DNA from: Escherichia phage Ptacy1496
Length of the DNA stretch: 64,000 nucleotides
Strand: one strand, 5' to 3'
Sequence record: PQ863253.1
Shown: positions 1,520-60,133 of the stretch, piece after piece
How the letters are laid out: every line of letters starts with the position of its first letter
How positions within the stretch are numbered: the first letter of the stretch is position 1
The notes under the pieces: model-generated
Database searches by the model: none
What the model saw: only the letters and a program-made list of their open reading frames with translations
What the model was told of the DNA's origin: nothing
Made by a program: the position numbers and the translations under genes

Positions 1520-2524
1520 TTAACTTACCAATTCAATCCAAGCCGGACGAAGTACATCTTGTACCATTTTAACTAATTCCTTCTTAATCAAAGAAGGATT
1601 ATCCGCTTGAGTTAGAGTAATACCTTCACGAGAAGTTTCTTCCAAAATATCTTGAACAGTTAGCCCCATCACCTTTCCAAAATCTTTTGGACCAATTTCA
1701 CCAATTTTAGAAATAACGTTATTTACTCGGTTCAGTGTAACGTAACAAGCTAAAATTCCAACCAATTTGTTATCAGCTTCTGACAGTTCAACTTTAGCTT
1801 TAATAGGCTTATCAGACTTTTTCTTTTCACTAAATTTAGAGTTCTTGCATTTGATAGCTACGCGATTGCCATTAGGCATCCAAGAAGGATAACAAGGTTT
1901 CAATACATATCCTTCAGCGGTAAATACTTCGCCTTTTACTTCAGCATTCCAAACGCATTTATTTGCATCAACTAATCCAGCATGGTCTACCGTAAAATTA
2001 TAATCCTGGACGACAGAATCTAAATCATTTGGCAATTTAATAAGTTCTTCAAATTTACCACGACCTAAAAGTGGAGCCATTTTAAATTTAAATGTATTAC
2101 AAAATGATTCCATCATATAATCATCGACATAAGTCACATCACCACTTTCTGTAGTGACAATAATGTCAAATACATAAAAATCTTTATCGCCATAATCGAC
2201 ATTCTTCTGAATGCCAGGTCCAGCGAATTCACCAAAGACTTGATAAGATACAACCGCTGAGGTTTCCATAATATCTTGTACTGCTTTAATAGAATCTTCG
2301 TAATTCTTTAGAATAATTTCATACCCAAAGAAATCTTCAGCAGGAAGAATCGGTCCAGTACGTTTAGCGCAAGTTACTTTATCACGCTCAATAATCAATG
2401 AGAAATTTGTGCCGTGAATCTTTTCACGAGCTACCCACTCCCCACCAGTCAATCCCAAGCTATAAAGTTTTTCAATAAATTTAGAGTTGTAATGATTTTC
2501 AAGACTGCTATACTTTTTAAACAT
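1520..2524 (-). CDS. rnlB: RNA ligase 2
   Basis: 334 aa; KIHG nucleotidyltransferase lysine motif near N-terminus; recognised as T4 Rnl2. Confidence 0.93.
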
Positions 2525-56462: not shown

Positions 56463-56923
56463 TAGTAAAGGTCCTCAGAGTAAAGTTCTTTTTCACTACC
56501 ACCACGTTCAATACGTACTTGTCCAGCGTAAGTTGCAATAATCATTGCTTCTTCACGTGTCCAATAATTACTGTATTGGTCAATAAACCCTTGGTCATCA
56601 TCACAAACTTGTTGAGTAACTAATTGAGGTTTAACTACATCTAAAACTTCTGCCATATCTTTAGAATAATGACGAGCACCTGGAATAATAAGAGTTCGTC
56701 CATCTTTTAATTTAAAACGGTTGGCTGCACAGACAATTCGTCGTTGATACTTTTGGTTTTCATCCCAATACGCAGTCTGCCAACAGATTTCAGGAACTTC
56801 TTTCAGAATATCTTCTTCTGTGCATTTATAACCATGCGCTTTAAATTTTTCAGCAAGACTTTCTGGAGTTTCACGAGATAAAGGAACATTCAGCATTTTT
56901 AAACGATTGATAAATGGGTTCAT
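56462..56923 (-). CDS. Hypothetical protein (arn.3 position)
   Basis: 153 aa ORF. Confidence 0.6.
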
Positions 56924-57249
56924 TTAAACCATCCTTTAATACGTTGCCACAAAGTTTTCTGCTGAGCTTTGTTAACACCAATTGAACGAATAACCGGTTG
57001 AGATTCCTGGAATTCTTTATAATCGGCAAGGTAAATTTCGTAAGCTGCATCCGTAAATGAACTTATCGCTGCCATAAAATTATTGCGAATACCTACTGGA
57101 GCATCTTTACTTTCACGAATAATCATGTATTTACCAGTCTTAATCTTTACGATAGTTCCAAGATAAGCTCCATGGTACCAGATGTCCCAACCCTCTTGAG
57201 TAGGTTCTACACAACGACGAAGTTCATTGACAATTTCTAACTTGTTCAT
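56920..57249 (-). CDS. Hypothetical protein (arn.4 position)
   Basis: 109 aa ORF. Confidence 0.55.
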
Positions 57250-57259
57250 TATTTATTCC

Positions 57260-57895
57260 TCACAGTTCAGATGCTACAGTGATTACAGCTTCAATGTTTT
57301 CTGCCGAGCGTTTAATGTCAAGATACACATTACCGTTTTTAGCGATTTTACATGACATTCCGATATCAGTAAATTTCTGAATATGATGTTCCATCATTTT
57401 GTATCCAAAAATTCGCATATTTCCATTATTGTTAATTTCAAAATTACGAATTCCGTGAGTGCGTTTTTCTAAAATGGCAAGATAATTACTACGATAAGTT
57501 TCAACCTTTTTAAGAACAAATCCATTTTCATCTAAAAGTTTTAACATGAGGTCTTTATCTTCTTCCATATCAGAAGTAATCTCACGAGCTTTACGAGTTG
57601 CTCGTTTTTTCAGTAGTTCCGGAGCATTTTTCTGCGCGTATAAAGTTGCTGCGTTTGAAATAATATCTTGAGCTTCACCTGTAATGATTAATCCATCACC
57701 AGATTTCTCCACCAGGCCTTTTTTAATCAATACCCCAATATTACTATTAACTACTGCGTTACCTAAATCTGGATGCACCTCACGAACTTCTGCGGCTGTA
57801 ATGAAATCTTTCTTAGCAATAGTAATTAAAATCGCAGCAGTTTTTTCATTCAGAACATCGTTAGAAGCTTTGATGATGTAAGTCACTTTAGACAT
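57260..57895 (-). CDS. motA: Middle transcription activator MotA
   Basis: 211 aa; recognised as T4 MotA. Confidence 0.93.
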   Translation of the reverse strand: MSKVTYIIKASNDVLNEKTAAILITIAKKDFITAAEVREVHPDLGNAVVNSNIGVLIKKGLVEKSGDGLIITGEAQDIISNAATLYAQKNAPELLKKRATRKAREITSDMEEDKDLMLKLLDENGFVLKKVETYRSNYLAILEKRTHGIRNFEINNNGNMRIFGYKMMEHHIQKFTDIGMSCKIAKNGNVYLDIKRSAENIEAVITVASEL

Positions 57896-57931
57896 TTTAA
57901 TCTCCGTTTCAGTTCATTTATTTGATAGGTC

Positions 57932-57960
57932 TATAGTATCATGTTTAAAGCAGAAGTAAA
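57932..57960 (-). promoter_or_regulatory. Early promoter for motA (-35 GTTTAC, -10 TACTAT)
   Basis: Motifs with 17 nt spacer; leader CTATCAAATAAATGAACTGAAAC shared with promoter at 58268-58340. Confidence 0.6.
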
Positions 57961-57999
57961 CACTTTTTGCACTCTTTTTCAAGAGCTCTAATAAAGTAC

Positions 58000-58227
58000 T
58001 TACTTAATGTTCAGATTACGAACTTCGATTTCGTCTTCATGGGCAAAATCAAACTGTTTGAATTCTGTGTCACCTTTAAATTTAAAAATCATTGTGAAGA
58101 AAGTCAGAACACCAGGTTTTTCTTCACGAACTCCACAGATATCATATTCAATACCATCTACAACCAGTTTGTTAGCAGTCAGAGCATTTTTAGCTTTAAC
58201 GATTTCGTTTTCGATTTTAAATTTCAT
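58000..58227 (-). CDS. Hypothetical protein, 75 aa, in its own promoter-terminator cassette (motA.1 position)
   Basis: ORF with GGAG RBS directly downstream of cassette at 58268-58358. Confidence 0.6.
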   Translation of the reverse strand: MKFKIENEIVKAKNALTANKLVVDGIEYDICGVREEKPGVLTFFTMIFKFKGDTEFKQFDFAHEDEIEVRNLNIK

Positions 58228-58267
58228 TTTTTGTATCTCCGGGTTGTTTGTTTCAGTTCATTTATTT

Positions 58268-58358
58268 GATAGTTGTATAGTACCACAGTATGCTTTGGTT
58301 GTAAACCGTTTTGTGAAAAAATTTTTGAAATAAAAAAGGGAGAGCCGAGGCTCTCCCT
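58268..58358 (-). promoter_or_regulatory. Terminator (GGGAGAGCC stem-loop plus U-run) and early promoter cassette (PeSL-like), paralogous to 40999-41087
   Basis: About 57 bp identical to the gene 32-downstream cassette outside the 17 nt spacer, including gatagttgtatagtac and tgtaaaccgttttgtgaaaaaatttttgaaataaaaaaggg. Confidence 0.65.
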
Positions 58359-58362
58359 AAAA

Positions 58363-58512
58363 TTACTGCATGACTGTGATAACTGTCATGATAACACGTT
58401 GAATTCCGAACGCAAGAAGACCTCCTGCTACGGCAGGAACAACACCTAAACCCGCCAGTAAAATGCCACCAGATACTAATGCAGCGCTTGTGATACCAAT
58501 GAATGGACTCAT
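58363..58512 (-). CDS. Small hydrophobic protein, 49 aa, start overlapping the gene 52 stop (ATGA)
   Basis: Hand translation MSPFIGITSAALVSGGILLAGLGVVPAVAGGLLAFGIQRVIMTVITVMQ; GAGG RBS; Gly-zipper-like TM segment. Confidence 0.55.
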   Translation of the reverse strand: MSPFIGITSAALVSGGILLAGLGVVPAVAGGLLAFGIQRVIMTVITVMQ

Positions 58513-59837
58513 TTGATTTCCTCTAAATCTTTGGTGTATTCTGTAACTACATCAGTAGTTTTCCAATATTCGTTTTCTTCTTTTTTGGCTTTAGCTTCTT
58601 CAGCAAGTTTCTTTGCTTCGTCGGAAGTCATATGAAAAATGTTCATTCCAACTAGTTTATCAACATAAGAAGAATACACATCAATTTTAGAAAGTTCTTC
58701 GGTCAGTTCTTTGCGAGTTTTACCTTGTACAACAATTTCACCTGAAATTACTTTCTTAATGAAATGTGCCTTGGCAAAAGCTAAACGAAATGCTGATTCA
58801 GTTTCTTTGATTTTGTTATCAATTCGTTTTTGGACATAAGTTTTACGAACTTCAACGAAGTCTTTGATTAAATCAACTACATTATCGTAAACTTGCAGCT
58901 TTCCTTTCTCATTAATGACGGTAATATTCTGGGAACGACGCTCAATCAACCCGAAGTCTTTCATAATTTTTGCATGGCGTTCTTCTTCATTATCGCTCAA
59001 AGAGTATTCTTTTCGGAATTTAACTTTGAAGCCAAAGCCATGCTCACCACAAGCATCATCCCATGTAATGAAGCCTTTATCTTCAAGCGGGTCTAAGATT
59101 TTACTCACATAAGTTTCACGATCATACTTATATGGAATCTCAGTGATATGCATTTGAGTTCGTGAAGTAAACTTATATGTTCCACGAATTTCATATTGCC
59201 CATCAATTTCAACGACTTCACCACGAAATTCTGGGAATTCTACCTTCGGTTTAGTTACTTTCTTTCCTTGAAGAGCTTGCAGTACAGCTTTCTTGACAGA
59301 AGAAACACTATGAGGAAGAATGTAAGTTGCATAACCAGTTGCAATACCGGAAACGCCATTAAGAAGAACAGTAGGAATAATAGGCAAATAGAAAGCAGGC
59401 GGAATGTGTTCTTTATCTTGATGTACTGGAGCATATTCAGTATCTTTATATACGTTATAGAAATTTTTACTTACACGAGCAAAAATATAACGACTTGCTG
59501 CTGCCTTTTGGACAGTACGAGAACCAAAGTTTCCTTGACCGTCTAACAGAGGAAAGTTATTATTCCAAGTGTTAGCCATCAAAGCACCTGCGTCTTGCGC
59601 AGAGTTTTCACCATGATGATATCCAAGGTCAGCTACACCGCCTGCGATAGAAGCGAGTTTGTGAAACTTATCTTTATTTCCTCGTGCCAAATCAAGAGCT
59701 CGAGCAATAACAAATCGTTGAACTGGCTTAAATCCGTCAATCATATTTGGAATGGCACGATTTTCAACCGTGTACATAGCATAAGCCAATGCTTCATTAT
59801 CAATGATACTTTTTAAATCACGATTATTCAGTTGCAT
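58509..59837 (-). CDS. 52: DNA topoisomerase II medium subunit gp52
   Basis: 442 aa; gyrase A-like N-terminal region; recognised as T4 gp52. Confidence 0.95.
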   Translation of the reverse strand: MQLNNRDLKSIIDNEALAYAMYTVENRAIPNMIDGFKPVQRFVIARALDLARGNKDKFHKLASIAGGVADLGYHHGENSAQDAGALMANTWNNNFPLLDGQGNFGSRTVQKAAASRYIFARVSKNFYNVYKDTEYAPVHQDKEHIPPAFYLPIIPTVLLNGVSGIATGYATYILPHSVSSVKKAVLQALQGKKVTKPKVEFPEFRGEVVEIDGQYEIRGTYKFTSRTQMHITEIPYKYDRETYVSKILDPLEDKGFITWDDACGEHGFGFKVKFRKEYSLSDNEEERHAKIMKDFGLIERRSQNITVINEKGKLQVYDNVVDLIKDFVEVRKTYVQKRIDNKIKETESAFRLAFAKAHFIKKVISGEIVVQGKTRKELTEELSKIDVYSSYVDKLVGMNIFHMTSDEAKKLAEEAKAKKEENEYWKTTDVVTEYTKDLEEIK

Positions 59838-59841
59838 AAAT

Positions 59842-59982
59842 TTACCATACTAGTGAATGTAGTGCCATAATAACATCAGAAATGAAAAGCACGACTTGAA
59901 TTAATCCGAACATTATTCCGTAATATAATGCTATCAATAAAATAGCAAGGGCTAATGAATAGCCCAAGATTTTCTTAATCAT
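59842..59982 (-). CDS. Small hydrophobic protein, 46 aa (52.1 position)
   Basis: Hand translation MIKKILGYSLALAILLIALYYGIMFGLIQVVLFISDVIMALHSLVW. Confidence 0.5.
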   Translation of the reverse strand: MIKKILGYSLALAILLIALYYGIMFGLIQVVLFISDVIMALHSLVW

Positions 59983-60133
59983 TAGTAGATAACAACACAA
60001 ATGTTAAATATGCACACATACCCTGAGCTAAAGCTTGCGAAAACACACTGCTGGCATCAATACAGATAGTTAAAACACATGCTACTATCCAACAAATAAA
60101 TGAAATAACTCCTAATAATTTTGCGATATTCAT
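59975..60133 (-). CDS. ac: Small membrane protein Ac (acriflavine sensitivity), 52 aa
   Basis: Hand translation MNIAKLLGVISFICWIVACVLTICIDASSVFSQALAQGMCAYLTFVLLSTND; size and position between 52 and stp. Confidence 0.6.
   Translation of the reverse strand: MNIAKLLGVISFICWIVACVLTICIDASSVFSQALAQGMCAYLTFVLLSTND

Follow-up and report, generated by a model that had tools for sequence, protein, structure and literature searches.

Gene content and organization of the gene 52–motA interval

The analysed window is a 64-kb (64,000-nucleotide) stretch of Escherichia phage Ptacy1496 (PQ863253.1), a Tequatrovirus genome and close kin of T4. Over 57200–58700 it shares 99.9% identity with Escherichia phage AV119, and this segment has matches in 558 phage records; population counts given below were drawn from the GenBank phage collection, and scans of IMG/VR yielded few loci. 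Four genes follow one another here, all on the minus strand, as do the features described with them: (i) gene 52, encoding the 442-aa topoisomerase II medium subunit (58509..59837; open reading frame list, with the gp52 annotation in T4 and AV119); (ii) motA.1, encoding a hydrophobic 49-aa peptide (58363..58512; match to T4 and to PHROG 3487); (iii) an accessory early gene of 75 codons, hereafter ORF75 (58000..58227; PHROG 10955); and (iv) motA, encoding the 211-aa activator of middle transcription (57260..57895; open reading frame list, with the T4 and AV119 annotation). Both small open reading frames that the original prediction placed between motA and gene 52 are therefore present on the minus strand. 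An Rfam scan of 57200–58700 returned sub-threshold chance matches only.

The neighbouring genes also show features worth recording. The arn.4 homologue (56920–57249, minus strand) has 109 aa here, in AV119, in JS98 and in IME281 and 68 aa (207 nt) in the T4 record, so that the T4 version appears to be shortened. Ahead of gene 52 lie two overlapping small membrane-protein genes of 52 aa each, homologues of 52.1 and ac (59842–60133, minus strand), and the topoisomerase gene thus has hydrophobic micro-proteins on both sides.

A strong intrinsic terminator with a 9-bp GC-rich stem followed by U6 was called by the terminator scan at 58331..58358 and is conserved in T4. Its hairpin (58337..58358) folds at -18.6 kcal/mol with z = -4.8 (z = -4.83 against shuffled sequences). 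ORF75 had been predicted to have its own terminator, but the strong terminator, which closes the gene 52–motA.1 unit, precedes the ORF75 promoter, and the scan called no site between 57896 and 58000, that is, 3' of ORF75. The sole hairpin 3' of ORF75 is a degenerate stem-loop at 57969..57988, between ORF75 and the promoter of motA, recognized by folding and by alignment with JS98 and IME281; it folds at -9 kcal/mol (z = -0.9 against shuffled sequences) and has no U-tract. Its counterpart in JS98 and IME281 is a perfect 8-bp stem, GAGCTCTT-GAAA-AAGAGCTC, and on this alignment the stem-loop is taken to mark the right edge of an exchangeable segment.

One variant of the upstream region was seen in an IMG/VR locus (L008, IMGVR_UViG_2974787500), where a deletion fuses the terminator stem to the promoter spacer 5' of ORF75 (GGCTCTCC joined to AAAGCATACTG). 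The deletion removes both the terminator U-tract and the -35 element of the ORF75 promoter, so ORF75 in that phage would depend on read-through from gene 52–motA.1.

Promoters, leaders and the direct repeat

The promoter scan found an early, sigma-70-type promoter 5' of ORF75 (P1, 58277..58306; GTTTACA, a 17-nt spacer carrying TG-n before the -10, and TACTAT), which bears out the suggestion that ORF75 has a predicted early promoter of its own (TTTACA-17-TACTAT with TG before the -10, 58305..58277). In sequence, P1 corresponds to the T4 motA promoter, and it is identical to the region upstream of T4 motA through CTATCAA. A second promoter, P2 (57933..57961; GTTTACT, a 16-nt spacer and TACTAT), was recognized 5' of motA by sequence reading and by alignment with JS98 and IME281. 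It is of the Dhakavirus motA promoter type, not the T4 type, and it escaped the promoter scan because its 16-nt spacer and its score of 8/12 against the sigma-70 consensus put it below the threshold. An A/T-rich tract lies 5' of each -35 element (TTTTTTATTTCAAAAATTTTTTCACAAAAC before P1 and GCAAAAAGT before P2).

The spacing between a MotA box and the -10 element is usually about 12 nt. P2 was considered as a combined early/middle promoter with TGCTTTA as its MotA box, and this was rejected, the box lying just 7 nt from the -10.

From the -10 region onwards the two promoters continue into a direct repeat of 36 nt, with copy 1 covering the -10 region and the ORF75 5' leader (58250..58285) and copy 2 the -10 region and the motA 5' leader (57906..57941). 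The two copies agree at 33 of 36 positions (92%), and the exact 23-nt core, CTATCAAATAAATGAACTGAAAC, occurs at these two sites only within the 64-kb window, where none is expected (100 shuffles). The near-identity of the two leaders, originally read as local duplication of regulatory DNA, is thus upheld as a repeat but not as a simple duplication, since the promoters differ 5' of the -10. The repeat here also reaches 9 nt (AACTGAAAC) further into the motA leader than it does in JS98 or IME281, a possible sign of gene conversion or local homogenization between the two copies.

Both genes have a GGAG Shine–Dalgarno sequence, at 58237..58240 for ORF75 (9 nt 5' of the ATG) and at 57902..57905 for motA, as read from the sequence. 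Both leaders are unstructured, with that of ORF75 folding at 0 kcal/mol. The RegB/S1 consensus is an 11-nt single-stranded GGAGRAYARAA, and T4 motA is a known good RegB/S1 substrate (Durand et al. 2006, PMC1702504). In this phage the motA leader, GGAGATTAAAA, is a candidate site with a 10/11 match to the consensus, and the ORF75 leader, GGAGATACAAA, fits poorly (8/11, with mismatches at positions 6–8). Among the ORF75 homologues, those of S16 and K65PH164 carry the perfect RegB/S1 sequence GGAGAATAAAA, and the RZH leader, TGGAGAATAAAA, contains GGAGAATAAAA as well. A mini-ORF, AUG-AAC-UGA, is also present in both leaders within AAAUAAAUGAACUGAAAC (57906–57928 and 58250–58272, minus strand), with no obvious Shine–Dalgarno sequence ahead of it.

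The MotA.1 micro-protein

The start codon of the 49-aa open reading frame (58512..58510) overlaps the gene 52 stop codon (58511..58509), as the predicted ATGA coupling requires, and a GAGG Shine–Dalgarno sequence lies 7 nt 5' of the ATG within the last codons of gene 52 (58520..58523). The encoded peptide is identical to T4 MotA.1 at 48 of 49 residues (98%; the sole substitution is S16G) and matches PHROG 3487 over residues 1–49 (E = 7e-31). T4 motA.1 (T4p263, UniProt P39512; PHROG 3487) further shares its position, its 4-nt overlap with gene 52 and its length. Judged from these sequence matches, the peptide is the already known MotA.1 and not a new protein. The originally proposed comparison with the T4 motA.1 region therefore succeeds for the 49-aa open reading frame and not for the 75-aa one, which is missing in T4.

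Among phage records, 421 encode MotA.1 with at least 94% identity. Its relatives in a large protein collection are all of Tequatrovirus type and all carry a precomputed PF26886 label; our local Pfam copy and NCBIfam gave no match. Alleles of motA.1 differ by 3–5 synonymous and 0–1 non-synonymous changes, and 28 of 49 columns are invariant in an alignment of 14 sequences (13 of which are cluster representatives).

The peptide is strongly hydrophobic, with a GRAVY of 1.61 and a Kyte–Doolittle hydropathy of at least 1.3 in every 19-residue window, and AlphaFold2 models it as one continuous helix over residues 3–48 (pLDDT 90). A transmembrane check on the peptide had been proposed, and hydropathy and model together give a single long predicted hydrophobic helix. 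The description of the peptide as a glycine zipper with GxxxG-like spacing does not hold for the strict motifs. Like the small membrane peptides of that kind, MotA.1 is Gly/Ala-rich and hydrophobic and has small-xxx-small spacings (e.g. G23-A27-G31). However, it contains neither a strict GxxxG nor a canonical zipper motif, (G,A,S)xxxGxxxG or GxxxGxxx(G,S,T) (0 of each), and its eight small-xxx-small pairs are not significantly above what its composition yields (mean 5.3 in 20,000 composition-preserving shuffles; P = 0.08). Our working guess is that MotA.1 may be a small inner-membrane peptide.

A study of T4 assigns both motA.1 and motA to the early transcripts (PMC9697503, Table S2), and the MotA.1 protein was undetected by mass spectrometry in the same proteome study (PMC9697503); this is expected because the peptide yields few tryptic peptides and is very hydrophobic. 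As to expression, motA.1 would be the conserved final part of the transcription unit of gene 52, ahead of the strong intrinsic terminator, and would most likely be translated by initiation or re-initiation at the ATGA overlap from the Shine–Dalgarno sequence within the last gene 52 codons.

A coupled micro-ORF recurs beyond the genus. In five Tevenvirinae lineages, a strongly hydrophobic open reading frame of 26–49 codons starts 1–7 nt before the gp52 stop: Tequatrovirus (49 aa), Dhakavirus (JS98 and IME281; 34 aa), Moonvirus (Merlin; 46 aa), Gelderlandvirus (CGG4-1; 45 aa) and the SSE1/mar005P1-like phages (26 aa; unannotated in SSE1). They were located at 58509–58523 in the window and in loci L020 (JS98; ~1858–1962, minus strand), L006 (~2779–2883), L007 (2668–2808), L013 and L014/L015. 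Their Shine–Dalgarno sequence, GGAGG or GAGG, is encoded in the conserved gp52 C-terminal DLE(E/A) codons; GGAGG is found within these codons in the four lineages besides Tequatrovirus, which has GAGG here. The five peptides are dissimilar in sequence when judged by eye. That the position is conserved points to a gp52-coupled membrane micro-protein under selection. We regard it as improbable that the micro-ORF encodes a functionally conserved, fast-evolving partner of the medium subunit of the T4-type topoisomerase II. If it did, the micro-protein could be made in proportion to gp52 and could tether or localize the topoisomerase or the replication machinery at the inner membrane. The recurring gp52-coupled micro-ORF offers a cheap hypothesis for T4 genetics.

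The ORF75 protein

ORF75 matches PHROG 10955 over residues 1–75 of 75 (E = 1e-48). This family comprises small hypothetical Tevenvirinae proteins (e.g. S16 gp55.1 and SEA1_gp0089), and ORF75 itself is already annotated as a hypothetical protein. Members in Gelderlandvirus, Jiaodavirus, Karamvirus and Moonvirus share 57–81% identity with ORF75; their genomic location varies by genus, and the Tequatrovirus/Dhakavirus form is 2–3 residues shorter at the N-terminus. Relatives are encoded in 167 phage records and are absent from T4. With the 421 records of MotA.1, this answers the original question of whether either open reading frame is conserved in related phages. Against homologues of four other genera, ORF75 has a dN/dS of 0.05–0.27, with synonymous divergence saturated. 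ORF75 is under purifying selection and is therefore a real gene.

The AlphaFold2 model of ORF75 is confident (pLDDT 89) and shows six strands in an all-beta fold. No Pfam or NCBIfam match was found, and an exhaustive profile search of 1.84 billion representative proteins recovered its own small family only, plus a local resemblance to adhesin repeats. In the latter, the central beta-hairpin PGVLTFFTMIFKFKGDTEFKQF within residues 32–73 resembles the repeated GSVTVFTMTIKADGSYEFKQF of the T1SS-143 repeats of a 3984-aa adhesin (18/42 identity; profile match E = 2.8e-11 summed over five repeats). Homology to this adhesin was rejected: the likeness is local (~30 residues), ORF75 has no TIGR03660 match, and the similarity is probably at the level of a motif. 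Fold searches returned weak matches only to beta-barrels of the eIF5A/EF-P/HEX-1 kind in the PDB (best E = 0.017) and uncharacterized phage proteins only in a viral library. As a working guess, ORF75 might be a small beta-barrel host-takeover or anti-host factor; a compact, confidently folded, predicted early protein is a reasonable candidate for host-takeover or anti-defence screens.

Two other readings of these small genes have to be weighed. One is that ORF75, motA.1 or both are non-coding chance open reading frames, as might be argued from the failure to see MotA.1 by mass spectrometry in T4 and from the lack of a match for either in the local Pfam copy. We consider this extremely unlikely in view of the low dN/dS of ORF75 over saturated synonymous divergence, its conserved length and its confident fold, and of the synonymous-biased changes, the invariant columns, the Shine–Dalgarno sequence and the ATGA overlap of motA.1. 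The other concerns MotA.1, which the T4 record annotates as a 'predicted periplasmic protein' and in which direct reading finds an AxA-like motif (AVA, then GG) at residues 27–29; the peptide could on these grounds be secreted, with an N-terminal signal peptide cleaved after A27-V28-A29, rather than form an integral helix. Secretion nonetheless seems unlikely, given an N-region without positive charge, a remainder of 20 residues that is hydrophobic too, hydropathy that holds through all 19-residue windows and a modelled helix that runs on without interruption.

Distribution of the cassette among T4-type phages

The full arrangement is found in 129 of the 558 matching phage records. In T4, a terminator and promoter identical to 58277–58358 of the window run straight into motA through a different leader, and the ORF75 slot is empty. 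Where T4 has the 17-nt leader segment CTACTGATACAGAATTA, our phage has ~360 nt instead, with junctions directly after TACTATACAACTATCAA and at CGGAGATTA..ATG. From about 57950 to 58250, the cassette is 98–100% identical to that of the Dhakavirus ime281, while the flanking gene 52 and motA are only ~50–80% identical. The cassette looks acquired because of this near-identity inside diverged flanks.

The slot has other contents elsewhere. JS98 and IME281 have identical flanks and unrelated open reading frames within them (orf253 versus ORF75). The order in both is a hydrophobic micro-ORF, the terminator and a promoter through CTATCAAA, and, beyond the cargo, the AGAGCTCTTGAAAAAGAGCTC stem-loop, a second promoter copy and motA; the two genomes switch directly after CTATCAAA and at the AGAGCTCTTGAAAAAGAGCTC stem-loop. 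Three further observations concern the slot in Salmonella phage CGG4-1 and Citrobacter phage Merlin: (i) both carry an 87-aa open reading frame there that starts MKNV(I/L)IAALENEG; (ii) early promoters flank it in CGG4-1, where a AGCATCTTT-GAAA-AAGATGCT stem-loop precedes the motA promoter; and (iii) in Merlin, ORF75, the 87-aa and a 119-aa open reading frame stand in series.

Homologues of ORF75 also occupy other loci. In S16 and SEA1 (Gelderlandvirus) and in RZH (Karamvirus) the gene lies between NrdC.11-like and NrdC.10-like genes, in K65PH164 (Jiaodavirus) it lies near a tRNA cluster, and in Merlin (Moonvirus) it lies between gene 52 and motA with two further open reading frames. At all loci read, an early promoter stands on both sides of the homologue. 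The two -10/leader sequences of each pair are near-identical to each other in S16, RZH and IME281, in a genome-specific manner, and match partially in K65PH164.

Likeness to promoter-early stem-loop cassettes

Cassettes bounded by promoter-early stem-loops (PeSLs) have been described in T4-type phages (Arbiol et al. 2010, PMC2839356; Comeau et al. 2014, PMC4122927), and the T4/PST promoter consensus is TTTACW-N17-TAYWAT with a stem-loop just upstream (PMC2839356, PMC4122927). We compared the locus with these. Like a PeSL cassette, the locus has a small open reading frame flanked by two predicted early promoters of sigma-70 type, each preceded by an A/T-rich tract and, in degenerate form at P2, by a stem-loop; the cargo is present or absent among close relatives and differs within the same flanks. 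Of the two predicted promoters, P1 fits the consensus fully and P2 fits it in both hexamers, with a spacer of 16 rather than 17 nt. The PeSL stem-loop can act as a terminator or attenuator; here, the strong terminator also serves as the stem-loop part of the upstream PeSL and has both the energy and the U6 of such an element, whereas the downstream one is weak and lacks a U-tract.

The locus departs from the PeSL pattern in two respects. Its downstream stem-loop is degenerate and not a terminator, and the crossovers would fall at the -10/+1 box and at the Shine–Dalgarno sequence and start codon instead of at a stem-loop on both sides. Recombination between PeSL elements yields mini-circles or excision products; at this locus, no excision-joint genotype was found among 50,697 phage records. 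The weakness of the downstream stem-loop in this phage, and hence a second PeSL that is degenerate, counts against the cassette model, as do the lack of any excision joint in these records and the 16-nt spacer and low sigma-70 score of P2. No mention of the locus upstream of motA was found in Comeau et al. 2014 (PMC4122927).

Origin of the cassette

We consider it likely that the interval between gene 52 and motA comprises the tail of the gene 52 unit, represented by motA.1, and a promoter-bounded accessory slot that holds a mobile ORF75. The ORF75 cassette looks like an acquired one of the PeSL type. Homologous recombination with a donor of Dhakavirus-like arrangement would have brought in a block made up of the ORF75 leader, ORF75, the stem-loop, the second early promoter and the motA leader. 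One crossover may have taken place in the conserved -10/+1 box, TACTATAnAnCTATCAA, and the other at or near the Shine–Dalgarno sequence and start of motA, CGGAGATTA..ATG. After such an exchange, ORF75 would be transcribed immediately after infection from what was formerly the motA promoter. Since ORF75 is not followed by a real terminator, transcription probably reads on into motA, and motA would also have the imported P2.

The direct repeat might instead go back to a simple tandem duplication in place, in which the promoter and leader of motA were copied and the 75-codon open reading frame arose or was trapped between the copies. The repeat itself, with a core found nowhere else in the window, and its extra 9 nt relative to the IME281 equivalent, which suggest some local homogenization, are what such a duplication has in its favour. 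Yet the promoters are of T4 type and Dhakavirus type, respectively, 5' of the -10, homologues of ORF75 reside at other loci in other genera, and the cassette is near-identical to that of a different genus. A local duplication is thus very unlikely and already largely refuted, and the 36-nt direct repeat is probably a by-product of cassette design rather than a fresh local duplication. A further possibility is that ORF75 is ancestral here and was lost by deletion or replacement from T4 and most Tequatrovirus genomes. The slot is filled by ORF75 or by other open reading frames in Dhakavirus, Moonvirus and Gelderlandvirus, and excision through PeSLs is on record for RB49 and phi1, both of which observations speak for ancestry. 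Excision would, however, leave CTATCAAATAAATGAACTGAAAC before motA, while T4-type phages have the unrelated leader CTACTGATACAGAATTA; the predicted excision joint, in which P1 is fused through the shared leader to motA, is absent among 50,697 phage records; and the near-identity of the cassette across genera argues for recent transfer. Ancestral presence is accordingly an unlikely explanation, if a less remote one than duplication. With no excision joint in the collection, continued mobility of the cassette is at most a possibility, and a gain in this phage and a loss or replacement in T4 would both be compatible with these data.

Implications for accessory-gene shuffling

Acquisition of a PeSL-type cassette would make this locus a clean, well-bounded natural case of promoter-flanked cassette exchange directly upstream of motA, a key regulator. 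The slot is empty in T4 and holds at least three cargo sets across genera, and the same cargo is also found at other loci. The locus is a neat, fresh instance of the known modular shuffling of T4-type phages: it supports the PeSL model of accessory-gene shuffling and indicates that motA can be kept while its promoter and leader are exchanged.
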